Assembly (NCBI RefSeq): GCF_055900595.2
Contig: NZ_CM148325.1
DNA: 64,000 nucleotides
Direction: 5' to 3' (one strand)
In this document: positions 6,092-36,835 of the stretch, in pieces
Layout of the letters: each line of letters opens with the position of its first letter
How positions within the stretch are numbered: position 1 is the stretch's first letter
Notes under the pieces: model-generated
What the model was told of the DNA's origin: nothing
The model's database searches: none
The model's input: only the letters and a program-made list of their open reading frames with translations
Translations under genes and position numbers: made by a program

Positions 6092-6766
6092 CTAATGGGC
6101 GATGAGTAAATTAGAGAAATGCAACCAGTTGTTGACAATAAAATTGCCATAGCTGGTATCTTCCTTTATTTTCTCCAGAGTAAGCGACATACCCCGGTTA
6201 TAACGGGCACCAATAATTCTTATCTGCTCTTTCGTCAGGTGTGGTAAGGAGGACTGAAATTCATCTCTTTCAGCTAATTGATAAAGATGTCTGGCCACAA
6301 GTTGAATATTAAAAATATCATGCTGGAGGCAATTTGCCAGTTCACGCAATTGAGAGGTATCCATTTTTGACTCATCAAGCCCAAGCGTTCTGGCTGCGGT
6401 TCGCAATTGCATACTCACTGCACCAAAAGATGTTTTTTCTGGTCTCGAAGTTATTGTGATATGTTCATCAATCCACTCAGGCCCACTCCAGTCAATAGTC
6501 CGAGCATCAAATGCCAGCATATCTACAATACTGGGATCCCCCCCGACTTCTATCCAACACACACCTGCCAGTAAAGGTGCTGGCAAATTATATGTATTGG
6601 CAGCCGATGTTATCAGAAGATGGTTATGTTTTACCCAGCCATCTTTGAAATAACGCCCAAACGGTACACCACCGCCCCATTTTTTTGGCGCTAATTTCCA
6701 GAAAAGAAATTCGGTCACGCCCCATACCGGTGAATGATTCGATGCATTGCAGTCCAGATTATTCAT
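6092..6766 (-). CDS. Hypothetical protein with lysozyme/lytic-transglycosylase-like motifs (SciQ-position gene); candidate peptidoglycan-active accessory or effector
   Basis: ORF 6092-6775. ATG at 6766 has GGAG 8 nt upstream; an alternative GTG at 6775 overlaps the tssL stop. Motif series WIEVGG ... GAVSMQL ... GARYNRG is reminiscent of SLT-domain E / GLMQ / AYNxG motifs but with atypical spacing. No signal peptide. AT-rich. Confidence 0.4.
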   Translation of the reverse strand: MNNLDCNASNHSPVWGVTEFLFWKLAPKKWGGGVPFGRYFKDGWVKHNHLLITSAANTYNLPAPLLAGVCWIEVGGDPSIVDMLAFDARTIDWSGPEWIDEHITITSRPEKTSFGAVSMQLRTAARTLGLDESKMDTSQLRELANCLQHDIFNIQLVARHLYQLAERDEFQSSLPHLTKEQIRIIGARYNRGMSLTLEKIKEDTSYGNFIVNNWLHFSNLLIAH

Positions 6767-6771
6767 TTTTC

Positions 6772-8088
6772 TCACTCCACCACCAGAATTTCCACCCGAC
6801 GGTTCTGCGCCCGTCCGGTTTTAGTGCTGTTATCGGCCACCGGTACGGTATCTCCTTTCCCGACGACCCGAATCCGGCTGACCGGAACACCACCGGACGT
6901 CAGCAGTGAAGCCACTTCCGTCGCCCGTTTTTCCGACAACACCTGGTTGGAGGGGAATTCAGCGGAGTGGATCGGCTGACTGTCGGTGTGTCCGGTCACC
7001 GTCACCGCGCCGCCCACACGCGCAATCTCTCGCGCGGCCTTATCAATCACCGGGCTTAGCGCATCATTCACGGTTTTCTGCCCTGGTATAAACATCGTAT
7101 CGCCACGAAAGATTACACGGCTGTGATGGTCATCTTCCTCCACCGTCAGCAGGCCACGGGCGATTTCGTTCGCCAGCAGGATTTTCAGCCGCAGTTTATG
7201 CACTGGAACGGGTGGCGGCGGTAGATTTTTACCAATGGCGTCGATACGCTGTTGTACGGTTTCGATAGCGAGGTTCATCCGGTGGCTGTAAAGGCCAAAC
7301 AGCGTCAGCATCACCAGCAGGGCGATTCCGGCACTCAGCCAGACCGGCACGCGGCGCATCCGTCGCATTCGCCCACTGACGGCACCGGCAAAACCCGGCG
7401 AGAGCGTCGGCGTGATCGGATCGCGACGCTGGACCAGTTGAGTCAGCAGTTGCTGACGAATATCGTCCAGTTGTTTACGTCCGTCAGGCCGTACACTGTA
7501 GCGGCCTTCAAAACCCAGCCCCAGAATGTGGTAAATGATCTCCAGTACATCGTTGTGCTCCTGGAAGCTTGCGGCCAGACGCCCAATTATCTGAAACAGC
7601 TTGATGCCGCCTTCACTTTCGCCATGAAAAGTGACCAGCAGGCTTTTTCCAGCCCAGACACCGCGCCGCCCCCAGGTGGTGTTGTTGGCGGCTTCGTCCA
7701 GCGAAGTGCATAGGCAATAACGCACAGCCAGCACATGTTCGCGGCGAAGGTTTGCCTGATCGCATAACGTCTGATATCGACGAACTTCACGCTCCAGTAG
7801 GGCACGATAATGTTCGACAAAACCAGGGGATAGTTCACGGGGCATTTGCGCCAGCGCGCACAGCAGAGGGCTTGCCGCCGCTAAAAGGGGATTCACGGCA
7901 GCGGTGATTTCAGCCAGCCGGATCTTCACATCCGGGCCGTCTTCAACCACCACCTTTATATCTTCCCTGCGAAGGTTGTCCTGTATTGCCGTATCGTAAC
8001 CGTCACTGTCGGGCAGTTTTACTCCCCCGGCTGATGGCTGGAAGGGCAGGGTATTCGCCGCAGGCGGCGTCAGGATCTCATCGGTCAT
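6772..8088 (-). CDS. tssL: T6SS membrane protein TssL (DotU-like) with C-terminal OmpA/MotB-like peptidoglycan-binding domain
   Basis: 438-aa ORF with a DotU-like N-terminal region, one TM segment (VWLSAGIALLVMLTLFGLY), and a C-terminal OmpA-like region (TVTGHTDSQP...SEKRA...NRRVEI). Overlaps the tssK stop. Confidence 0.85.
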   Translation of the reverse strand: MTDEILTPPAANTLPFQPSAGGVKLPDSDGYDTAIQDNLRREDIKVVVEDGPDVKIRLAEITAAVNPLLAAASPLLCALAQMPRELSPGFVEHYRALLEREVRRYQTLCDQANLRREHVLAVRYCLCTSLDEAANNTTWGRRGVWAGKSLLVTFHGESEGGIKLFQIIGRLAASFQEHNDVLEIIYHILGLGFEGRYSVRPDGRKQLDDIRQQLLTQLVQRRDPITPTLSPGFAGAVSGRMRRMRRVPVWLSAGIALLVMLTLFGLYSHRMNLAIETVQQRIDAIGKNLPPPPVPVHKLRLKILLANEIARGLLTVEEDDHHSRVIFRGDTMFIPGQKTVNDALSPVIDKAAREIARVGGAVTVTGHTDSQPIHSAEFPSNQVLSEKRATEVASLLTSGGVPVSRIRVVGKGDTVPVADNSTKTGRAQNRRVEILVVE

Positions 8089-10518: not shown

Positions 10519-10753
10519 TTTCATTTCCTTATTTAGAATTACTTAAAAATAACCTCTGATTTATCTGTACATCTGGATACAGGTAAACCATTGCCGTACA
10601 GAACCCCCTCTCCTTAATTTCAGAAGAACAGAAGGCTGTATAATTTCCGGTACTGAAATACCGGGAAGATATTTATTTACCTTATAAATAAATCATCAAA
10701 ACAATAATTTTAGCCCTGCGTTTCTCACTCAATATATTCACAAAATAAATAAA

Positions 10754-12268
10754 TTAGGCATTACCCTGTTTTACTGACGGCAGTTTTGTGACCAGGCGCA
10801 GCGACCCCGTTAATCCCTCAAGCTGAAAATGCGGGCGCAGGAAGAATTTGGCATCGTAATAACCCGGATTACCTTCCACCTCTTCCACCACCACTTCGGC
10901 AGCTGCTAGTGGGCGACGAGCTTTGGTTTCCTGTGAGGAGTTCACCGGATCGGCATCGACGTAGTTCATGATCCACTCATTGAGCCAGCGCTGCATATCT
11001 TCGCGCTCTTTGAACGAGCCGATCTTGTCGCGCACGATGCATTTGAGGAAGTGTGCAAATCTTGAACAGGCGAACAAATAGGGCAACCGGGCGGAGAGAT
11101 TGGCGTTGGCCGTGGCGTCCGGATCGTAATAATCCTGCGGTTTTTGCAGCGACTGTGCGCCAATAAAGGCGGCATAATCAGAGTTTTTGCGGTGGATCAG
11201 CGGGATAAAACCGTTTTTGGCCAGTTCAGCTTCACGGCGATCAGAGATGGCAATTTCCGTCGGGCATTTCATGTCCACGCCGCCGTCATCGGTCGGGAAG
11301 GTATGACAGGGCAGATTTTCCACCGCGCCACCAGATTCCACACCACGGATCAACGTACACCAACCATAATGTTTGAAAGAACGGTTGATATTTACACCCA
11401 TCGCATAGGCGGCATTGCTCCAGACATATTTGCTGTGATCTGCGCCATCCGCATCTTCTTCAAAATCAAACTCATCGACAGGGTTTGTTTTCGCACCATA
11501 AGGCAAACGGGAGAGAAAACGTGGCATCGTCAGGCCAATGTAGCGAGAATCCTCACTTTTTCGCAGCGAGTTCCACGGTGCGTATTCGAGGTTTTGGGTC
11601 ACGATTTTGGTCAAATCACGCGGGTTAGCCAGTTCCTGCCAGGAGTCCATCTGCAACACTGACGGAGAGGCACCGGCAATAAACGGCGCATGGGCTGAGG
11701 CTGCTACTTTGGCAATGGAACCGAGCAGATCCACATCCGGTGGCGTGTGATCAAAATAATAATCCGCAATAATACAACCGTAAGGTTCTCCACCTAACTG
11801 TCCATATTCAGCTTCATACAGCTTTTTGAACATGGGGCTTTGATCCCAGGCTATCCCTTTGTAACGTTTCATATTTTTCCGCAATTCATCCTTCGAAAGG
11901 TTCATAAAGCGGATTTTTAATTTTTCATCGGTTTCAGTGTTGTAAACCAAATGTTCCATCCCACGCCAGGAGGACTCCAGTTTCTGAAATTCCGGATGAC
12001 TCAGGATGAGTTTGATCTGCTCGGTTAATTTGAAATCAATCTGCTCAATAATCGCAGCAATACTTTTATAAGCGTCGTCACTGACGGTGACGGTATTTGT
12101 CAGAGCCTGTTGGGCCAGCGTCTGAACTGCTGCCTCAACAGCCTTTGCTGCCTGAGGTGTCTTGGGACGGAAGGCTTTATCCAGGAGCGAATCAAATTCA
12201 GTGTCCTGATAGGCAGTGGTTTGCGCAGCAGAGAGATCGCCAGTCGCCAGAAGAGTATCGTTTACCAT
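10754..12268 (-). CDS. tssC: T6SS contractile sheath large subunit TssC
   Basis: 504-aa ORF immediately downstream of tssB; size and position of TssC (VipB). Confidence 0.9.
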   Translation of the reverse strand: MVNDTLLATGDLSAAQTTAYQDTEFDSLLDKAFRPKTPQAAKAVEAAVQTLAQQALTNTVTVSDDAYKSIAAIIEQIDFKLTEQIKLILSHPEFQKLESSWRGMEHLVYNTETDEKLKIRFMNLSKDELRKNMKRYKGIAWDQSPMFKKLYEAEYGQLGGEPYGCIIADYYFDHTPPDVDLLGSIAKVAASAHAPFIAGASPSVLQMDSWQELANPRDLTKIVTQNLEYAPWNSLRKSEDSRYIGLTMPRFLSRLPYGAKTNPVDEFDFEEDADGADHSKYVWSNAAYAMGVNINRSFKHYGWCTLIRGVESGGAVENLPCHTFPTDDGGVDMKCPTEIAISDRREAELAKNGFIPLIHRKNSDYAAFIGAQSLQKPQDYYDPDATANANLSARLPYLFACSRFAHFLKCIVRDKIGSFKEREDMQRWLNEWIMNYVDADPVNSSQETKARRPLAAAEVVVEEVEGNPGYYDAKFFLRPHFQLEGLTGSLRLVTKLPSVKQGNA

Positions 12269-12292
12269 GAAAGTTCCTTAATAAAATCGCAG

Positions 12293-12838
12293 TTAGTCTG
12301 CTGTTCCTGTTTCACCTGATAAGACACTTTCCTGTTGAGCGACAGGTTTTGGCGCACTGGCCAGAGCTTTCAGTAACGTAGGGTCTTGTAATAGTTTGTT
12401 GATAAGATTTTCTGCTCCCGCTTTACCATCCATATACGTTTGTAGGTTGGCAAGCTGAGTACGCGCTTCCAGCAGCTGGTTCAGGGCATCCACCTTACGG
12501 GCAATTTGCGCAGGCGAAAAATCGTCCATATTCTCCAGCGTGATATCGACCATTAACTGCCCTTCGCCCGTCAGCGTATTGGGGACAGCAAACGCCACGC
12601 GCGGCGCAATGGCTTTCATCCGCTCGTTGAAGTTATCGATATCAATATCAAGGAATTTACGATCGGTGACCGGTGGCAGCTCTTCGCGTGGTTTACCGGC
12701 CAGATCGGCCAGCACTGCCATGACAAACGGTAGTTCGATTTTTTTCTCGGAGCCATAAATCTCAACGTCATACTCAATCTGCACGCGGGGCGCGCGGTTG
12801 CGGGCAATAAACTTCTGCGCGCTGTTGTTGATAGCCAT
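12293..12838 (-). CDS. tssB: T6SS contractile sheath small subunit TssB
   Basis: 181-aa ORF directly upstream of tssC; size and position of TssB (VipA). Confidence 0.9.
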   Translation of the reverse strand: MAINNSAQKFIARNRAPRVQIEYDVEIYGSEKKIELPFVMAVLADLAGKPREELPPVTDRKFLDIDIDNFNERMKAIAPRVAFAVPNTLTGEGQLMVDITLENMDDFSPAQIARKVDALNQLLEARTQLANLQTYMDGKAGAENLINKLLQDPTLLKALASAPKPVAQQESVLSGETGTAD

Positions 12839-12899
12839 AATCCTTCATTTCCTTATCAGTGAGCCGACGACCACCAGGGGAGCGGTTCGACGGTACAGT

Positions 12900-13190
12900 T
12901 TAAAAATCATACGCAGAGAGTATTTTTATAATCTCTTTGTTTTCTTTGTACTTTTCCCGCAGCACAGGGAGTGATTTCTTCGCTGGAGGACACCAGGTAT
13001 CAACCCCCTTTTCGATGTCTCTTTTATCCTTCTCTGGTAAAGAACTGTCCCATTCACCAGCAAGATGCTGGCACATTTCCGCATTACTCAGAAAATGCTG
13101 CACATCCTGTGGTAAAGACGGTTCCCCCTGAACACTGAAAGCGAACATCATTAACAGGAATGTCCACAACACCGGATAACGAAATGTCAT
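12900..13190 (-). CDS. Hypothetical small secreted protein (signal peptide) between clpV and tssB
   Basis: 96-aa ORF with N-terminal signal-peptide-like segment MTFRYPVLWTFLLMMFAFSVQG followed by a charged C-terminal region. AT-rich. No known family recognised. Confidence 0.35.
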   Translation of the reverse strand: MTFRYPVLWTFLLMMFAFSVQGEPSLPQDVQHFLSNAEMCQHLAGEWDSSLPEKDKRDIEKGVDTWCPPAKKSLPVLREKYKENKEIIKILSAYDF

Positions 13191-13408
13191 ACTTAATGTC
13201 CATCAATTGACCAGTGCATGAGATATGCTCTGGCGGGAGGGCGATATGTTGCAGAGATACTGCCCCTTGCACGCGCATTACCAAGCGCGCGCAAAAAATT
13301 TTCTACCGATGCACGAAAAGTCCCCTGCAAATCATTAGTGGAAGAACTTACAGGAAAGCGACTGACCCACATTGCGCCACTTAATTCTTTTGCCATAAGG
13401 ATGCTCCA

Positions 13409-16042
13409 TTAATCCGTTTCAAAAATAATCTGTTCATCCTCATCAACACGAATGCGGATTTGCGTGATGGCCGTTTTCTCTGTCATCGCCTGCAACCAAT
13501 AACGGGACAGTTGTGGGAGGATATGTTGTTCGATATAGCCGATGAGCAAACGAGCGCCGGTTTCGTGCATCGGGCAGCGCGACACAATATGCGTAATCAG
13601 TTCATCGCCATACACCAGTGAAACGCCATGCTGCTCCGCCATCCGAGCCATCAATCTGCCAAGATGCAGGCGGGCAATAACACCACGCGCGGTCTCATCC
13701 AGCGGTAAATAAGGAATAACCGTCACACGCCCCAGGAAAGCCGCCGGGAAGTGTTTACGTAACTCCGGCATTAACGCCTCTTTTAGTCCTGCCGAATCAG
13801 GCATCAGCGCCGGATCCTCACAGAGCTGGCTGATAAGTTCCGCCCCCGCGTTAGTAGTCAACAACAGCGTGGTATTTTTGAAATCGATGTGGACACCTTC
13901 GCCGTCCTCCATCGCGCCTTTATCGAATACCTGGTAGAACAACTCGTGGACGTCGTGATGGGCTTTTTCAATTTCATCCAACAGCACTACACTCCAGGGG
14001 TGACGGCGTACGGCTTCCGTCAACACACCGCCTTCGCCATAGCCGACGTAGCCGGGCGGCGCGCCTTTCAGCGTGGAGACGGTGTGAGACTCCTGAAACT
14101 CGCTCATGTTGATGGTGATCAGGTTCTGCTCACCGCCGTAAATAGATTCCGCCAGCGCCAGCGCGGTCTCGGTCTTGCCGACACCGGACGGCCCGGCCAG
14201 CAGAAAGACGCCCATCGGTTTACGCGGGTCGCCTAACCCCGCCCGCGCGGTCTGAATACGCTCGCCAATCTGCGCCAGCGCATCCATCTGCCCGGTAACA
14301 CGCTGCGCCAAACGGGTGGGCAATTCCAGTATCTGACTGGCTTCATCTTTCACCATCCGTCCGGCGGGAATACCGGTCCAGTCAGAGACAATCTCTGCCA
14401 CCACGGTTGCACTGACTTCCGGGTACACGACGGGGTTTTCACCCTGCCAGCCTCTTAATGCCGTTTCTGCCTGTTGTAGAGTGATTTCGTCGCGCTCGCC
14501 AGGCGCTGCGCCGCGTTGCTCCTGTAAACTGCGAACCAACTCCAGTTCCTGCTGCCACCGCGCTTCGGTGTCAGAAAGATCGGCATTAAGCGATATAATC
14601 CGCGCCGTCAGTACATCGCCCCGCTCCGAGCGGATACCCATTTTTTCCTGCTTTAATAACAACTCCTGCTCCAGTTCGGCAGCGTTGAGCTGCTGGCGCA
14701 GATACTGGACTCTCGCAGGCGGGGTATGCAGCGACAGCGCTACACGGGCCGCCGCCGTATCCAGCAGGCTGATGGCCTTATCCGGTAGTTGCCGGGCCGG
14801 AATGTAACGGTGAGAAAGCTGTACGGCGGCACGCACGGCCTCATCAAGGATCAGCACGTCATGGTGTTTTTCAAGCGTGGTGACTAACCCGCGTACCATC
14901 TCAACAGCCGCAACCTCTTCCGGCTCAGCAACCTGCAATACCTGAAAACGCCGGGTCAGCGCCGGATCCTTTTCGATATGGCGTTTGTACTCGCTCCAGG
15001 TGGTTGCGCCGATGGTGCGCAGGGTGCCACGCGCCAGCGCCGGTTTCAGCAGGTTGGCAGCATCCCCCGTACCGGATGTACCACCAGCGCCCACCAGCGT
15101 GTGAACTTCATCAACAAAAAGGATCACCGGCTGCGGCGAGCGCGCGGCCTCTTCCAGCAACGCTTTCAGGCGGGATTCAAATTCACCCTTCATGGAGGCC
15201 CCAGCCAGCAGCGCTCCAACATCCAGTGACAGCAATCGCACGTTACGCAGTGACGGCGGTACTTCCCCCCCGGCAATCGCCAGCGCGAATCCTTCCACCA
15301 CTGCCGTTTTCCCGACCCCCGCTTCGCCGGTCAGTAGCGGGTTGTTCTGGCGACGGCGCAGCAGAATATCCGTCATAGTACGGATCTCGTGTTCGCGACC
15401 GGTGACCGGATCGATATTGCCTTCACGGGCCAGCGCAGTCATGTCCTGGCAGTATTTCGCCAGCGCGGATTTGCTTCCGGTTGATTCGCCGGCAAAGACC
15501 TGGCTAGCTTCCCCCGGTACTGCAGAATTTAAATCCGAGCCGTCATAAGGCATTTCTGTTAATTCAGGAGATGAAGTGATTAAAGACGGAAGAATATCTA
15601 ATAGTTCATCTACCGGTAGCTCTGCCAATGGCGCACAAATATTTTTTAACACCCGACACAATTCTGGCGTGGTTAACCAGGCAAGTAATAACCATCCACT
15701 ACGAATTTTTTGATCGCCAAAGCGGATACTTGCTAACATCCAGGCTTTTTCAACTGAAAGATCGATATGATGGGAAAAATCGTTAATTACACTCGCTCCG
15801 GCAGGCAATATATTCAATTGCTGAATTAACGCCTTCTCAACATCAGCAGATGTTATTTGATAATGTCGAAGCACATTGTGAATGTCATTCTCTGGTTGTT
15901 GTATTAACTGATGCAACCAATGCGTCAGTTCGACATAAGGGTTAGCGCGTAATTTACAGAACGTCGTCGCAGATTCCAAAGATCTAAACAAAGATTTGGT
16001 TAGCTTTCCATACAGTGCACTGCGCGAAACAGGAGTGTCCAT
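13409..16042 (-). CDS. clpV: T6SS AAA+ ATPase ClpV (TssH)
   Basis: 877-aa ORF with two AAA+ modules: Walker A GEAGVGKTA and GPSGVGKTE, Walker B DEVH and DEIEKAH; ClpB-like but located in the T6SS cluster. Confidence 0.93.
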   Translation of the reverse strand: MDTPVSRSALYGKLTKSLFRSLESATTFCKLRANPYVELTHWLHQLIQQPENDIHNVLRHYQITSADVEKALIQQLNILPAGASVINDFSHHIDLSVEKAWMLASIRFGDQKIRSGWLLLAWLTTPELCRVLKNICAPLAELPVDELLDILPSLITSSPELTEMPYDGSDLNSAVPGEASQVFAGESTGSKSALAKYCQDMTALAREGNIDPVTGREHEIRTMTDILLRRRQNNPLLTGEAGVGKTAVVEGFALAIAGGEVPPSLRNVRLLSLDVGALLAGASMKGEFESRLKALLEEAARSPQPVILFVDEVHTLVGAGGTSGTGDAANLLKPALARGTLRTIGATTWSEYKRHIEKDPALTRRFQVLQVAEPEEVAAVEMVRGLVTTLEKHHDVLILDEAVRAAVQLSHRYIPARQLPDKAISLLDTAAARVALSLHTPPARVQYLRQQLNAAELEQELLLKQEKMGIRSERGDVLTARIISLNADLSDTEARWQQELELVRSLQEQRGAAPGERDEITLQQAETALRGWQGENPVVYPEVSATVVAEIVSDWTGIPAGRMVKDEASQILELPTRLAQRVTGQMDALAQIGERIQTARAGLGDPRKPMGVFLLAGPSGVGKTETALALAESIYGGEQNLITINMSEFQESHTVSTLKGAPPGYVGYGEGGVLTEAVRRHPWSVVLLDEIEKAHHDVHELFYQVFDKGAMEDGEGVHIDFKNTTLLLTTNAGAELISQLCEDPALMPDSAGLKEALMPELRKHFPAAFLGRVTVIPYLPLDETARGVIARLHLGRLMARMAEQHGVSLVYGDELITHIVSRCPMHETGARLLIGYIEQHILPQLSRYWLQAMTEKTAITQIRIRVDEDEQIIFETD

Positions 16043-16374
16043 CTGTTACACCTAATGATGTAATAACATATAAATGATACATAAAAATAACTGTATCGAT
16101 TAAAACTTCTAATTAATAGAATTATCAAAAAGGCAGAATAAAACAATGATGCATATCACAGAACACAATGTAATATAGCAGGTAGTATCTTTTTCATGGT
16201 GATATTCAATAGAGCAAGCCAATTTCATACGCACCGTGAATATATTAAATTGTAAATCGCCACTATATATTTCCGTGAAAACTTATATTGATAAAGTAAA
16301 TTGATCAGCTTTGCTTATCTAAAAATTTAGAAAACTTATTCTTTTGAAAGAAACACTCTACACAGTGATACGCA
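16043..16374. promoter_or_regulatory. AT-rich divergent control region between the clpV operon and the fha-like/tssE-F-G-A operon
   Basis: About 330 bp of strongly AT-rich non-coding sequence flanked by divergently oriented start codons. Individual promoter elements not resolved. Confidence 0.5.
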
Positions 16375-17286
16375 ATGAAACCAAATATTACGTGGGAACT
16401 CCAAAAAATACAGGCGCATGGGATCGCCGATAACACAATTTACGCGACTGAAGGAACACAAATTATCTTCACCGTTACCTCTCCCTGGATTCCTGTTTTT
16501 GATGTGAATGATGATGTAAAGATTGCGCTCAGACTGACCCGCCACGAAGAAGCATGGTGGATTATCAATCAGTCTACCGAATATTGCTGTACGGTAAACG
16601 ACCAGATTGTGGAACCTCATCACCGTATGCGTCTGAATGAAGGCGACCTGATAGAATGGGGATTATCTTCATGGTGCCTTGTGCATGGCAATCCATCATC
16701 TCCGAACCTAAGCGCAGTAAAGACATCGCAGACTGCCACCACGTCGGAAACAATAACCGAATATCTGGATCTGGATTGGTTCAGGCAGCAGCATCTGACA
16801 TCACAAAATCCATTCGATATCATTCCTGTTCATGGAGCCTCCTCCACCGGAGAAGATGCGGAAAAAGAAAATGCCCTGACCCGACTTTATCAGGAATACC
16901 GCGAAGCGTTGTTATCTCCCGAACAAGATCTTCATCGCCATGCTGATCCTTTTCCCTTTAACGAAGAACCCTCCTCGCAGGATCTGGATTCATTGCGTGA
17001 CCTGGTCACCGAAGCCGAGACATTGCAGGATATGGTCACTGGCGGGTTAAGCATTGACGCTATTCTCAATGTACTGGATGCCACCGGCGAAGATGAAACT
17101 ATCTGGCCTGTCGAAAACACTCCCCCTGACATCCTGCATTTACTTTCCCCGGAATACGCCCCGGAAACAGCGCATAACACCGTTCTGCCCGACCTGACAC
17201 GCAAAGAGCATCGCATCATTGGCATTGACAGCCATTACCGGATAAACCCGGCACAACACGGAGATACCTCTCATGATAAACAATAA
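16375..17286 (+). CDS. T6SS-associated hypothetical protein, possibly degenerate FHA-domain (TagH/Fha-like); SciA position
   Basis: 303-aa ORF, first gene of the plus operon. N-terminal region has weak FHA-like character (RLNEGDLIEWG); acidic/proline-rich C-terminal half. Assignment is weak. Confidence 0.3.
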   Translation: MKPNITWELQKIQAHGIADNTIYATEGTQIIFTVTSPWIPVFDVNDDVKIALRLTRHEEAWWIINQSTEYCCTVNDQIVEPHHRMRLNEGDLIEWGLSSWCLVHGNPSSPNLSAVKTSQTATTSETITEYLDLDWFRQQHLTSQNPFDIIPVHGASSTGEDAEKENALTRLYQEYREALLSPEQDLHRHADPFPFNEEPSSQDLDSLRDLVTEAETLQDMVTGGLSIDAILNVLDATGEDETIWPVENTPPDILHLLSPEYAPETAHNTVLPDLTRKEHRIIGIDSHYRINPAQHGDTSHDKQ

Positions 17287-18609: not shown

Positions 18610-20493
18610 ATGGATCCACGGCTACTGGAATACTACAACCGCGAACTGAGCTATCTGCGGGAAACGGGAGCCGAATTTGCCGCCCGTCATCCTAAAGTCG
18701 CCGCCAGACTGGGTATGCAGGGAACGGATATTGCCGATCCGTATGTGGAGCGTATGGTCGAAGCCTTTAGCTTCCTGACCGCCCGCACGCAGCTAAAAAT
18801 TGACGCTGAATTCCCCCGTTTCACCCAGCGCCTGCTGGAAGTAGTCAGCCCCAATTACGTCACCCCCACGCCCTCAATGAGCGTGGCGCAGCTCCATCCC
18901 GACCCGGAAGAAGGCGATCTGGCGAAGGGATTTACCGTCCCGCGCGACACGGCCTTTTTTTCCGCCATTCCGGAAGGCGAAAGTACCGCCTGTCAGTTTC
19001 GCAGCAGCCAGGATGTAACGCTGTGGCCGCTCGCCATCGAAGAGGTGCGACTGACCGCCGCACCGCCGGATATGCCTGCCCTGCACCGCTCTCTGCCAGC
19101 CAACATTCACGTCGCTGGTGCGCTGCGTATTACCCTGCGCACCTTTGGTGAACTGACATTCAGTCAGCTTGCAGGGCTGGACAGGCTTCCGTTTTATCTC
19201 TGTGGCGAGGAGCGCACGGCCTCACACCTGTTCGAACTGCTACATACCAGCGCCATCGCGACCCTGGCTGGCATTCCGGGGCATTTTGACGGTGCGCTGG
19301 ATGTGAATCTGCAACATCCCGTTATGTACGAAGGCCTGGAGCTGGATCAGGGGCTGCTGCCGCTGGCGTGGAACGTGTTTCACGGTCATAACCTGCTGCA
19401 TGAATATTTTGCCTGTCCAGAACGCTTTTATTTTTTCACCCCGACAGGCCTGTCTGCCGGGTTACAGAAAATTGACGGTGGCGTGGCGGAGATTGTTATC
19501 CTGCTGAACCGCCTGCCGCCGGACTGGCTGATCCACCAGACAAACGCGGCACAGTTCAGCCTGTTCTGTACCCCGATTATCAACCTGTTTCCCCGCGTCA
19601 CCGCACGGATCGATGTCACGCACAGCACGACGGAACAGCATCTGGTGGTAGACAGAACCCATCCACTGGATTATGAGGTGTTCTCGGTCCAGGAAGTGGA
19701 AGGGCTGGAAACCGACACCACACGGAAGATGGCCTTTCGCCCGCTCTACCACACCCGCAATAATGATGAAGGCAATCACGGACGTTATTTTTCCCTGCGC
19801 CGGGAGCCCCGCCGCTTATCAGAAAACGCCCGCCGTTACGGCACCCGTACCCCCTATACGGGCTCGGAAGTGTTCCTGTCGCTGGTTGACCAATATGAAG
19901 CGCCGTACCCAGAAAATCTGCGCCACATCACCATCACGGCCATGGTCACTAACCGCGATCTGCCCTGTCTTATTGCACGTAATGGCCGGGACGATCTAAC
20001 CGTGGATGCGGCAATCCCAGTGGCGGGCGTAGGGCTTATCCGCCCGCCGCGCTCGCCGCAGCCCCCGCTGGCTGAACGTGAGATGGCCTGGCGTTTGATC
20101 CGCCAGTTATCCTTTAATTATCTGCCGCTGGCCGATCTGGATCACCGTACCGGCGGCCAGGCGCTGCGCGATCTGCTTAACCTGTTTATTCCGGCGCATG
20201 ACAGCCCACAGTCGCGCCAGGTACGCAGTCTGATTGGCTGCAACACCACCCCGGTCACCCGCCGTCTGCCCGGTACCGGGCTGCTGGTCTATGGACGCGG
20301 CGTCAGTTGTGAACTGACGGTGGATGAGGAAGGGTTCTCCGGTATCAGTCCGTATCTGTTCGGCCTGGTGCTGGAGCACTATATCGCCCGTCATGTTTCC
20401 ATTAATACCTTCTCGCAGATGACGCTGCACAGCATGCAGCGCGGCAAAATTATGACCTGGCCTGTCAGGGCGGGACAGCGGGGAAGCGTATGA
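18610..20493 (+). CDS. tssF: T6SS baseplate protein TssF
   Basis: 627-aa ORF between tssE and tssG, overlapping the tssG start; size and position of TssF. Confidence 0.85.
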   Translation: MDPRLLEYYNRELSYLRETGAEFAARHPKVAARLGMQGTDIADPYVERMVEAFSFLTARTQLKIDAEFPRFTQRLLEVVSPNYVTPTPSMSVAQLHPDPEEGDLAKGFTVPRDTAFFSAIPEGESTACQFRSSQDVTLWPLAIEEVRLTAAPPDMPALHRSLPANIHVAGALRITLRTFGELTFSQLAGLDRLPFYLCGEERTASHLFELLHTSAIATLAGIPGHFDGALDVNLQHPVMYEGLELDQGLLPLAWNVFHGHNLLHEYFACPERFYFFTPTGLSAGLQKIDGGVAEIVILLNRLPPDWLIHQTNAAQFSLFCTPIINLFPRVTARIDVTHSTTEQHLVVDRTHPLDYEVFSVQEVEGLETDTTRKMAFRPLYHTRNNDEGNHGRYFSLRREPRRLSENARRYGTRTPYTGSEVFLSLVDQYEAPYPENLRHITITAMVTNRDLPCLIARNGRDDLTVDAAIPVAGVGLIRPPRSPQPPLAEREMAWRLIRQLSFNYLPLADLDHRTGGQALRDLLNLFIPAHDSPQSRQVRSLIGCNTTPVTRRLPGTGLLVYGRGVSCELTVDEEGFSGISPYLFGLVLEHYIARHVSINTFSQMTLHSMQRGKIMTWPVRAGQRGSV

Positions 20494-22674: not shown

Positions 22675-22751
22675 TGGCGGAACGGACGGGACTCGAACCC
22701 GCGACCCCCTGCGTGACAGGCAGGTATTCTAACCGACTGAACTACCGCTCC
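22675..22751 (-). tRNA. aspV: tRNA-Asp (GUC)
   Basis: 77-nt sequence; reverse complement matches E. coli tRNA-Asp as recalled (GGAGCGGTAGTTCAGTCGGTTAGAATACCTGCCTGTCACGCAGGGGGTCGCGGGTTCGAGTCCCGTCCGTTCCGCCA). Confidence 0.97.
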
Positions 22752-30859: not shown

Positions 30860-31567
30860 AAATAAATATCCTCCGGCATAGCCGGAGGTTTTTCAAATGC
30901 GCCTGTAAGGCTCTGTTACCAGCCGCGCCCTAACAGGCGCATACGATCTGACATTTGCATTCAACTTCGTTACTTACGGCCCGTAAACGGGCTGCCCGGA
31001 TATGGAATCGATAACTGCTCCCCCATTTTATCCTCTTCAAGCTGGTGCTTTATGTAGTCCTGTATCTTCGCCGTGTTCTTACCCACCGTATCGACATAGT
31101 ACCCTCGGCACCAGAACTCCCTGTTTCTGTATTTGAATTTCAAATCCCCAAACTGCTCGTAAAGCATCAGACTGCTTTTCCCTTTCAGATATCCCATAAA
31201 GCCGGATACGCTCATTTTGGGTGGGATTTCCACAAGCATATGGATATGATCTGCGCAGCACTCTGCTTCCAGAATCCGTACGCTTTTCCACTCACACAGC
31301 TTTCTCAAAATACTGCCTATCGCCCTACGCTTCTCTCCGTAAAACGCCAGTCTTCGGTATTTCGGCGCAAAAACTATGTGATATTTACAGTTCCAGCGGG
31401 TGTGCGCTAAGCTCTTTTCGTCCCCCATTGGGACCCCCTTTTGATTTCTTGTTTGACACTTGCAGTTGCCAGACCGCAAGGTGTTTTAACAAATCAAAAG
31501 GGGTTTTAATAACTGGCTCAAAGCTGAAAGCTTTCCGGAACCCCCAGCCTAGCCGGGGGTTTTCTGT
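30860..31567 (-). mobile_element. IS200-type insertion sequence (IS200/IS605 family); boundaries approximate
   Basis: Contains an intact IS200-like tnpA; hairpin AACCCCCAGCCTAGCCGGGGGTT near 31541-31563 and palindromes at 30870-30945 flank it. Exact ends not determinable by eye. Confidence 0.6.
30970..31428 (-). CDS. tnpA: IS200 transposase TnpA (Y1 HuH tyrosine transposase)
   Basis: ORF 30970-31479 trimmed to MGDEKSLAHTRWNCKYHIVFAPKYRR... (152 aa); HuH motif HIHML and catalytic Tyr region YYVDTVG. Confidence 0.9.
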   Translation of the reverse strand: MGDEKSLAHTRWNCKYHIVFAPKYRRLAFYGEKRRAIGSILRKLCEWKSVRILEAECCADHIHMLVEIPPKMSVSGFMGYLKGKSSLMLYEQFGDLKFKYRNREFWCRGYYVDTVGKNTAKIQDYIKHQLEEDKMGEQLSIPYPGSPFTGRK

Positions 31568-31571
31568 GCAC

Positions 31572-31598
31572 AAAAAAACCTCGAGCGTTAACTCGAGG
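31572..31598 (-). terminator. rrnH operon terminator downstream of aspU
   Basis: CCTCGAGCGTTAACTCGAGG hairpin with a U-tract on the minus strand (AAAAAAA on plus), directly 3' of tRNA-Asp. Confidence 0.8.
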
Positions 31599-31610
31599 CT
31601 TCTTAATAAG

Positions 31611-31687
31611 TGGCGGAACGGACGGGACTCGAACCCGCGACCCCCTGCGTGACAGGCAGGTATTCTAACCGACTGAACTACCGCTCC
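31611..31687 (-). tRNA. aspU: tRNA-Asp (GUC), distal gene of rrnH operon
   Basis: 77 nt, identical to the 22675-22751 copy. Confidence 0.97.
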
Positions 31688-31739
31688 ACCGAATTCTTTT
31701 ACAACCACCGGTTTTATGACCGGCTTACTGCTTAATTTG

Positions 31740-31859
31740 ATGCCTGGCAGTTCCCTACTCTCGCATGGGGAGACCCCACACTACCATCGGCGCTACGGCG
31801 TTTCACTTCTGAGTTCGGCATGGGGTCAGGTGGGACCACCGCGCTAAGGCCGCCAGGCA
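31740..31859 (-). rRNA. rrfH: 5S ribosomal RNA
   Basis: 120 nt; reverse complement matches E. coli 5S rRNA (TGCCTGGCGGC...GGAACTGCCAGGCAT) apart from about one position relative to my recollection of rrfB. Confidence 0.95.
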
Positions 31860-31952
31860 AATTCTGTTTCATCAGACCGCTTCTGCGTTCTGATTTAATC
31901 TGTATCAGGCTGAAAATCTTCTCTCAATCCGCCAAAACATCTTCGGCGTTGT

Positions 31953-34857
<2,905 letters not shown>

Positions 34858-35030
34858 TCACAACCCGAAGATGTTTCACTTCTGATTGCGAAAATTTGAG
34901 AGACTCACGAACAACTTTCGTTGTTCAGTGTTTCAATTTTCAGCTTGATCCAGATTTTTAAAGAGCAAAACTTCGCAGTGAACCTTTGCAGGTACACTCT
35001 GAAGTATTTTTTATTTAATCACTACAGAGA

Positions 35031-35106
35031 TGGTGGAGCTATGCGGGATCGAACCGCAGACCTCCTGCGTGCAAAGCAGGCGCTCTCCCAGCTGAGCTAT
35101 AGCCCC
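35031..35106 (-). tRNA. alaV: tRNA-Ala (UGC), spacer tRNA
   Basis: 76 nt; reverse complement GGGGCTATAGCTCAGCTGGGAGAGCGCCTGCTTTGCACGCAGGAGGTCTGCGGTTCGATCCCGCATAGCTCCACCA. Confidence 0.97.
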
Positions 35107-35148
35107 ATAACATGTAGTTAAAACCTCTTCAAATTTGCGGTGCAAATT

Positions 35149-35225
<77 letters not shown>

Positions 35226-35293
35226 GTAGAGGTTTTACTGCTCATTTTCATCAGACAATCTGTGTGAGCACTGCAAAGCACAGTTCTTTCAGG

Positions 35294-36835
<1,542 letters not shown>

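Follow-up and report, generated by a model that had tools for sequence, protein, structure and literature searches.

A degenerate putative effector gene and a retained putative immunity gene between tssH and tssB of an SPI-6-like type VI secretion island of Escherichia coli

Two small genes fill the tssH-tssB interval

The Escherichia coli DNA studied here, a stretch of 64,000 nucleotides from contig NZ_CM148325.1 (referred to in its full length as the window), carries the gene cluster for a type VI secretion system (T6SS) whose architecture is that of Salmonella pathogenicity island 6 (SPI-6). We focus on the interval between tssH (clpV) and tssB. A preliminary description had taken it for an AT-rich gap in an otherwise tightly coupled operon and had noted within it an open reading frame (ORF) for a small secreted protein and a possible sigma54-type promoter element. 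The extent of the interval (570 bp; 12839-13408) is borne out by the ends of the flanking genes (13409-16042 and 12293-12838); however, its characterization as a gap has to be revised. Two back-to-back ORFs of 67 and 96 amino acids occupy 495 of the 570 bp (87%), and the non-coding part amounts to only 12 + 2 + 61 nt, so that the genes of this region are tightly coupled as well. The 67-aa ORF (13193-13396, minus strand), positioned directly upstream of the 96-aa ORF, had been overlooked. With a G+C content of 46.0%, compared to 52.3% for the window, the interval is only mildly AT-rich; the truly AT-rich spacers of the cluster are found at 16043-16374 (27.7% GC) and 10525-10753 (31.4% GC). The features of the region are as follows.

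12293-12838, minus strand: tssB, small sheath subunit (TIGR03358, 190 bits)
12839-12899, minus strand: 61-nt spacer between the immunity-type gene and tssB, carrying the tssB Shine-Dalgarno sequence GAAGGA and kept even in E. coli A20
12900-13190, minus strand: intact 96-aa immunity-type gene (family alignment; AlphaFold2 model)
13125-13190, minus strand: predicted Sec signal peptide, codons 1-22 of the immunity-type gene (read from the sequence and the alignment)
13193-13396, minus strand: 67-aa remnant of a putative effector gene (DNA alignment with intact alleles; family alignment; tblastn)
13208-13216, minus strand: deletion junction with the surviving single 9-bp repeat CACTGGTCA (codons H-W-S; comparison with intact alleles)
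13268-13283, minus strand: sigma54-like string TGGTAATGCGCGTGCA, from the third base of codon L38 to A43 of the remnant; regarded as matching by chance
13409-16042, minus strand: tssH/clpV, T6SS AAA+ ATPase, upstream gene of the operon (TIGR03345 VI_ClpV1, 1220.8 bits against a cut-off of 885)
16043-16374, no strand: divergent AT-rich intergenic region between clpV and tagK (27.7% GC, 332 bp)

The 67-aa ORF is the stump of a 187-codon gene

The 67-aa ORF starts 12 nt past the clpV stop codon and is preceded by a GGAG Shine-Dalgarno sequence 8 nt upstream. When positions 12700-13550 were compared by megablast with 5,426 complete E. coli genomes, the locus was recovered from 117 of them, and in most of these the match spans 1,211 bp and not 851 bp. 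In strain 2012C-4221, the extra DNA turns the upstream ORF into a gene for a 187-aa protein annotated as "peptidoglycan-binding domain-containing protein". Alignment of the intact alleles with the window at the DNA level reveals a clean in-frame gap of 360 bp flanked by CACTGGTCA; this 9-bp direct repeat is present in the intact gene at nt 181 and nt 541, hence 360 bp apart, and the window retains a single copy of it. Replication slippage or recombination between these short homologies is the probable cause of the deletion.

The remnant retains residues 1-63 and 184-187 of the 187-aa protein, while codons 61-180 are lost, and with them the conserved H88 and the S118-x-H120-x-x-G-x-A-x-D127 motif. 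Since H88, H120 and D127 of the catalytic core are missing, the 67-aa product cannot be an enzyme. A tblastn search of the window with the intact protein returned only residues 1-63 and 181-187, and no other copy exists within the 64 kb. The apparent gap between clpV and tssB thus exists because a broken gene, which we take to have encoded a T6SS effector (see below), sits there.

The intact protein is predicted to adopt the LAS fold of zinc peptidases

Homologues of the intact protein, 186-216 aa in length, are widespread in Enterobacterales and Burkholderiales (304 matches at E <= 0.001, none of them with a Pfam domain). In an alignment of 18 homologues, inspected by eye, no signal peptide or hydrophobic N-terminal segment was seen. 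Conserved positions comprise R52, P53, R56, H61-W62, H88, S118-x-H120-x-x-G-x-A-x-D127 and H181-W182-S183; H120 and H181 hardly vary, and 17 of the 18 full-length sequences have D127. A metal-site motif SxHxxGxAxD together with a C-terminal histidine is therefore present in the form S118-N-H120-T-R-G-T-A-I-D127 and H181.

Pfam, NCBIfam, PHROGs and PDB sequence and profile searches with this protein and with the 96-aa protein yielded nothing significant (the DdpX model, for instance, matched the effector at E = 0.11), and only a comparison of structures placed the effector. Its AlphaFold2 model (mean predicted local distance difference test score, pLDDT, of 93.1) shows the LAS (Hedgehog/DD-peptidase) fold, and its Foldseek neighbors are uniformly LAS/M15 proteins: Ply500 (E = 3.9e-4), followed by LysB4, LdcB, VanYB, VanX, VanXYc and ChiX. 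On the strength of this confident model, we read the intact protein as a distant VanY-like (LAS, M15-like) zinc peptidase that would act on peptidoglycan peptides. Predicted fold and metal-site motif match those of the LAS/MEROPS M15 zinc peptidases (VanY, VanX, VanXY, LdcB, Ply500, the T5 and LysB4 L-Ala-D-Glu endolysins, and ChiX). These enzymes serve in cell-wall recycling, vancomycin resistance or phage lysis, whereas the family described here occurs in the context of T6SS cargo, and the copy present in the window lacks the entire catalytic core.

The 96-aa gene encodes a putatively exported protein of a conserved family

The 96-aa ORF (12900-13190, minus strand) noted in the preliminary description is real. 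Its product begins with MTFRYPVLWTFLLMMFAFSVQG followed by EP, a typical Sec signal with R4, the hydrophobic core VLWTFLLMMFAF and a V-Q-G/E cleavage site deduced from the -3/-1 rule. The notion of a small exported protein thus holds, and the protein belongs to a conserved family; however, a periplasmic T6SS immunity protein fits the data better than a free-standing secreted protein. All of its close homologues, which come from Escherichia, Salmonella and Citrobacter, are unnamed proteins. Across the alignable homologues, whose identity to the protein of the window ranges from 82% to 20%, the residues F33, C40, H42, G45 and E46 are common to all, giving the family motif C40-x-H42-x-x-G45-E46, and C67 is found in all but two frameshifted variants. 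An export signal is present in each alignable homologue, be it a Sec signal or a lipobox, the latter (LGA-C, LAA-C) replacing the Sec signal in the homologues from Burkholderiales.

The AlphaFold2 model of the mature part, with pLDDT above 90 for residues 30-96, is a three-helix bundle. A fold search with it retrieved nothing beyond generic helical hairpins (best E = 0.8), none of them a significant relative. The ATG start codon of the 96-aa gene is located 2 nt after the stop codon of the remnant, and this spacing suggests that its translation is coupled to that of the remnant ORF.

A putative effector-immunity module in the cargo slot of the island

The effector gene is intact between tssH and tssB in the SPI-6-type cluster L019, and it occupies the same position in E. 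coli. In Ralstonia and Herbaspirillum, it is found directly downstream of a PAAR gene whose end it overlaps, and orphan pairs are present in Pectobacterium, Intestinirhabdus, Scleromatobacter and a metagenomic contig of Burkholderiales. Outside E. coli, seven contexts were examined, and each of them has a small ORF that comes after the effector gene or overlaps with it. A hydrolase devoid of a signal peptide, a small exported partner, and linkage to T6SS or PAAR genes represent the standard signature of a T6SS effector-immunity pair acting in the periplasm, and we infer from it that the two genes constitute a peptidoglycan-targeting module of this type.

The clpV-tssB interval would accordingly serve as a cargo slot in an SPI-6-like T6SS island, located at a tRNA-Asp gene, with the slot occupied in the window by a degenerate version of this module. 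In armed strains, the T6SS would fire the peptidase, made in the cytoplasm without a signal peptide, into the periplasm of a rival cell, where it would cut the stem peptides of peptidoglycan; the cognate 96-aa immunity protein, exported to the periplasm via the Sec route, would bind and block an incoming effector. In the genome studied here, the in-frame deletion between the 9-bp direct repeats has removed the catalytic core, so that the strain would be disarmed with respect to this toxin and yet remain protected against kin that fire it. Both small genes would belong to a single operon in which transcription continues from clpV through to tssB.

Several points weigh against this interpretation. 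Of the six contexts that are not part of a T6SS core cluster, four have no T6SS gene within 5-6 kb. Membership of the effector in the M15 family is not borne out at the level of sequence, where similarity is below the family thresholds: the Pfam model Peptidase_M15_4 matched 16 residues (117-132) at E = 0.12, and PDB sequence and profile searches gave no match. In the open-access literature of PMC and in bioRxiv, we found no experiment on secretion, toxicity or neutralization for the effector family. A second intact copy of the effector gene might conceivably exist outside of the examined 64 kb of the genome, and co-transcription is proposed from gene spacing only. With these points taken into account, we still regard it as highly probable that the interval holds a degenerate effector gene and a retained immunity gene transcribed by read-through within the operon, with no sigma54 promoter involved. 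Searches of the same literature by protein accession, and for VanY or M15 in combination with T6SS, retrieved no paper on the E. coli protein; mentions of "M15" in several papers turned out to be the lacZ-delta-M15 genotype or strain names and not the peptidase family.

The module resembles the Tae1-4/Tai, Tlde1/Tldi1 and Tge/Tgi systems in that a gene for a small, signal-less effector is followed in a bicistronic arrangement by an immunity gene whose product has a signal peptide; like them, it is located in a variable region of a T6SS cluster, and its predicted target is the stem peptides of peptidoglycan. It differs from them in the effector fold, which is predicted to be LAS/VanY-like and zinc-dependent, while the Tae proteins are papain- or NlpC/P60-like, Tlde1 is a YkuD-type L,D-transpeptidase, and the Tge proteins are lysozyme-like. 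It differs further in the three-helix immunity protein that lacks a detectable relative, and in being known from genes and models alone.

Immunity genes without a functional cognate effector are well known from the orphan immunity arrays of Vibrio cholerae and the acquired immunity islands of Bacteroides. The situation in the window is probably similar, as an intact immunity gene persists next to an inactivated effector gene, with no other effector copy in the 64-kb window, and would plausibly protect against armed relatives; it differs in that the presumed orphan arose in place, through deletion of the adjacent effector in a core operon, and was not acquired as a stand-alone gene. To specialists in the field, who are familiar with orphan immunity genes and with cargo slots of variable content, these findings will come as no surprise, and we view the case as an ordinary degenerate effector with retained immunity. 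They do correct the annotation of a region that is usually labeled as two hypothetical proteins and that is better described as a broken effector gene and a live immunity gene.

Repeated inactivation of the effector gene in E. coli and Salmonella

Of the complete E. coli genomes, 115 carry the 96-aa gene, and 108 contain, anywhere in the genome, the central 360 bp that the window lacks. E. coli A20 has neither of the two cargo genes, and its clpV-tssB spacer measures about 100 bp. The exact deletion junction of the window recurs in at least five other E. coli genomes (R32_14_1F, LHM10-1, VE-T9, CP52E and 6EVA). The carriers form two haplotype groups, one consisting of the window and R32_14_1F, the other being the LHM10-1 group; between the groups, 18-24 of 971 sites differ, and each group is closer, or as close, to an intact allele than to the other. 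The presence of the same junction in two haplotype groups led us to reject the view that all deletion carriers represent a single clone. Instead, it suggests at least two independent 360-bp deletions at the 9-bp repeat, a conclusion that is drawn from 10 sequences over the local 971 bp and for which recombination provides a possible alternative. A 3-kb alignment with strain 2012C-4221 was left out since its distances were inflated, apparently by the truncated clpV gene of this strain.

Full-length alleles may show signs of decay as well. The commonest of them in E. coli (cluster representative P0001) carries Asn in place of the conserved Asp127 of the SxHxxGxAxD motif. The band of 95-99% identity to which such alleles belong comprises 96 of the 108 E. 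coli genomes, and N127 was found in each of the six genomes sampled from it (M8, D7, PEC395, SFE8, c1-17 and ECN24; loci L013:1521-2084 and L020-L024). Asp127 is retained only in 2012C-4221, MEI003 and alleles of the VCSW7 type; in VCSW7 itself (L012:1522-2070), and also in VCSW5, a 15-bp in-frame deletion has removed effector residues 77-81 (PAMEG). Many of the seemingly intact E. coli copies may therefore also be catalytically impaired through N127.

The tssH genes of some of these strains are likewise altered: tssH/clpV is annotated as frameshifted in VE-T9 and 6EVA (loci L008 and L010), both carriers of the 360-bp deletion, and in 2012C-4221 (L001) it is truncated to a 1,482-bp gene for an "AAA family ATPase". 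In some of these lineages, decay may extend to the entire T6SS.

In the SPI-6 island of Salmonella enterica, an intact homologue of the 96-aa gene (82% protein identity; P0135) is present directly after clpV. It is preceded by a 32-aa ORF encoding MPKELSGAQWV followed by YGVTKFVGGNTDKPHWSIDGH (L014 and L015:5900-6291). Blondel et al. (2023; PMC10469887) found this tssH-tssB ORF in 18 of 60 genomes and described it as a new candidate effector, to which they ascribed an L-Ala-D-Glu endopeptidase domain; they named the downstream ORF with its signal peptide as the immunity gene. When compared with the intact gene of cluster L019, the 32-aa ORF consists of both ends of that gene, identical in sequence and joined at the microhomology GGTT, the 465 bp between them having been lost in frame. 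This comparison suggests that the published candidate effector is a deletion remnant, the locus itself being already known. The Salmonella VR1 pair (PMC10469887) and the pair of the window share the orthologous tssH-tssB position in a syntenic T6SS island and the same effector family; however, the 465-bp deletion at GGTT differs from the smaller 360-bp deletion between 9-bp repeats, and the Salmonella ORF is a stump whereas most E. coli carriers possess the full-length gene. The Salmonella deletion is independent of that in E. coli.

The routes of loss thus comprise the 360-bp deletion (in two haplotypes), the 465-bp deletion, the 15-bp deletion, complete loss of the genes, and the D127N exchange at a predicted zinc ligand. 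We consider it slightly better than an even bet that these cases reflect an uncharacterized family of T6SS peptidoglycan peptidases, with three-helix immunity proteins of about 100 aa, in Enterobacterales and Burkholderiales, whose effector is lost repeatedly while immunity is kept. If so, the module would offer a natural example of selection to disarm but to stay immune, and the 32-aa "effector" of Salmonella would be a pseudogene stump. Repeated, independent inactivation of a toxin with retention of its antidote would also provide a compact natural data set on the decay of T6SS arsenals. An uncharacterized LAS-fold effector family that is inactivated time and again while its immunity gene persists is a side result of some value, and it points to a family of cell-wall effectors with a predicted LAS/VanY fold and to a small immunity fold, likewise predicted, that is new.

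Transcription of the interval

We propose that transcription reads through from clpV into tssB, because the spacers measure just 12, 2 and 61 nt and a scan for sigma70-type promoters and terminators found no site on the minus strand of 12839-13408. The RNA fold of the spacer between the immunity gene and tssB is no different from that of shuffled sequences (z = -0.27), and the sole match of an Rfam scan of 12200-16500 at E <= 1 was a meaningless small nucleolar RNA inside clpV. The simplest reading is that the operon is transcribed from the AT-rich region upstream of clpV; judged by gene layout, positions 16043-16374 are the most likely promoter region for a clpV-remnant-immunity-tssBC transcript, and they are likely to serve as the main promoter and silencing region of the island.

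An internal promoter within the remnant, for instance of the sigma70 type, might in addition drive the immunity gene and perhaps tssBC, which would be compatible with a degenerate effector and a retained immunity gene. Constant expression would be sensible for an orphan immunity gene, and a precedent exists in V. cholerae, where internal promoters are documented for T6SS immunity genes, resulting in their dual expression (PMC3857813). We nevertheless deem such a promoter improbable, given that the sigma70-type scan detected no minus-strand site in the interval and that the 2-nt spacing between remnant and immunity gene suggests a coupling of translation to that of the upstream ORF. A better place to seek an internal promoter is the ORF-free 229-bp spacer between tssC and hcp (10525-10753), since it is more AT-rich (31.4% GC) and less coupled than the clpV-tssB interval. 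In Salmonella SPI-6, additional genes lie downstream of tssC (VR1), among them hcp and those for Tae4/Tai4.

The preliminary description had proposed that a sigma54-dependent (-24/-12) promoter upstream of tssB initiates an rpoN-dependent transcript for tssB-tssC. The sheath operons of the T6SS of Vibrio, Aeromonas and Pseudomonas are indeed under sigma54 control, and a GG-N10-GC string with the proper spacing, TGGTAATGCGCGTGCA, is present at 13268-13283 on the minus strand. However, this string deviates at three positions from the TGGCAC-N5-TTGCA core and agrees with 8 of the 12 positions of the extended consensus, which is a match at the level of chance: the window contains 184 sites with up to three mismatches, against 213 ± 14 in dinucleotide shuffles, and thus shows no enrichment, and 84 sites that have GG and GC and agree at 8 or more of 12 positions, against 68 ± 8.5. 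Three equally scoring sites are present on the minus strand of 12839-13408 alone. Moreover, the string is coding sequence, namely that for L38-G-N-A-R-A43 of the remnant, in a gene that is variably present, and it is lacking in E. coli A20 as well as in the Salmonella loci L014 and L015, in which the segment is deleted while clpV and tssB are kept.

Sigma54-dependent T6SS promoters such as those served by VasH of V. cholerae are accompanied by enhancer-binding proteins encoded in the cluster, and the string in the window has only the GG-N10-GC spacing in common with them. None of the enhancer-binding protein signatures GAFTGA, ESELFG and GESGTGK was found in the six frames of the 64-kb window, and a 2025 review of the Salmonella T6SS makes no mention of sigma factors or RpoN. 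We therefore consider a sigma54 promoter at this site very unlikely, and a spurious regulatory lead upstream of tssB in this SPI-6-like T6SS can be set aside. Hence, what stands of the preliminary description are the coordinates of the interval, the 96-aa ORF with its exported product from a conserved family, and the occurrence of the GG-N10-GC string; the AT-richness and the gap were overstated, and the regulatory meaning given to the string is not supported.

Alternative roles for the products of the two small genes

It is conceivable that the 67-aa product has gained a function of its own as a decoy, adaptor or regulator, and that this accounts for the same deletion on two haplotypes. The remnant ORF is still open and has a good Shine-Dalgarno sequence, and its junction is identical on backgrounds that each are closer, or as close, to an intact allele than to one another. 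Yet the 9-bp direct repeat is enough to explain the recurrence of the deletion, two of its carriers also have a frameshifted tssH, and the Salmonella remnant retains a different and much smaller piece of the protein. Furthermore, when compared with R32_14_1F and the intact alleles, the remnant of the window displays the private non-synonymous changes L9M, G16V and D32E (positions 13372, 13350 and 13301) and no synonymous change, and the immunity gene displays one private change, C19S, in its signal peptide. These numbers are tiny; they are suggestive of relaxed constraint on the remnant. Overall, we give little credence to a new function of the 67-aa product.

That the 96-aa protein might instead be a secreted thioredoxin-like redox protein, or an effector in its own right that is unrelated to the upstream ORF, is scarcely credible: the NCBIfam StoA model (E = 7e-7) scores 29 bits against a cut-off of 210, and the similarity to StoA/Trx2 entries of the PDB (E = 0.003-0.01) is confined to the surroundings of WCPPAKK, a motif that is CPPA and not CxxC and of which homologues keep only the Cys (YCGTAQK, LCEAARR), while the fold predicted is a three-helix bundle and not the alpha/beta fold of thioredoxins, the fold search found no thioredoxin and Pfam gave no match, and the 96-aa gene is always paired with the peptidase gene. 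The non-conserved motif and the helical fold of the model led us to reject a thioredoxin-like identity.

Further features of the island and its surroundings

The cluster proceeds in the order tagF, tssM, tssL (long form), tssK, tssJ, hcp, tssC, tssB, immunity gene, remnant and tssH, and it is faced by the divergently oriented genes tagK, an ImpE-like gene, tssE, tssF, tssG and tssA. It ends at a tRNA-Asp gene (22675-22751) and adjoins an rrn operon. This end of the island is an insertion site of the aspV type, which is also that of SPI-6. The rrn operon (31438-36835) comprises the genes for 5S, 23S, tRNA-Ala, tRNA-Ile and 16S RNA; a second tRNA-Asp gene (31611-31687) and the small RNA STnc490 (31438-31561) are found in the same region. 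ARAGORN predicted a 94-nt tRNA-His gene at 20276-20369 (plus strand) inside tssF, which has no support from Rfam and is probably a false positive.

Three ORFs of the island, all on the minus strand, are without a match in NCBIfam: 207-680 (157 aa), 665-1135 (156 aa) and 6092-6775 (227 aa). The first two are located downstream of tagF and tssM, at the place of VR2 in SPI-6, and could represent further cargo or immunity genes.

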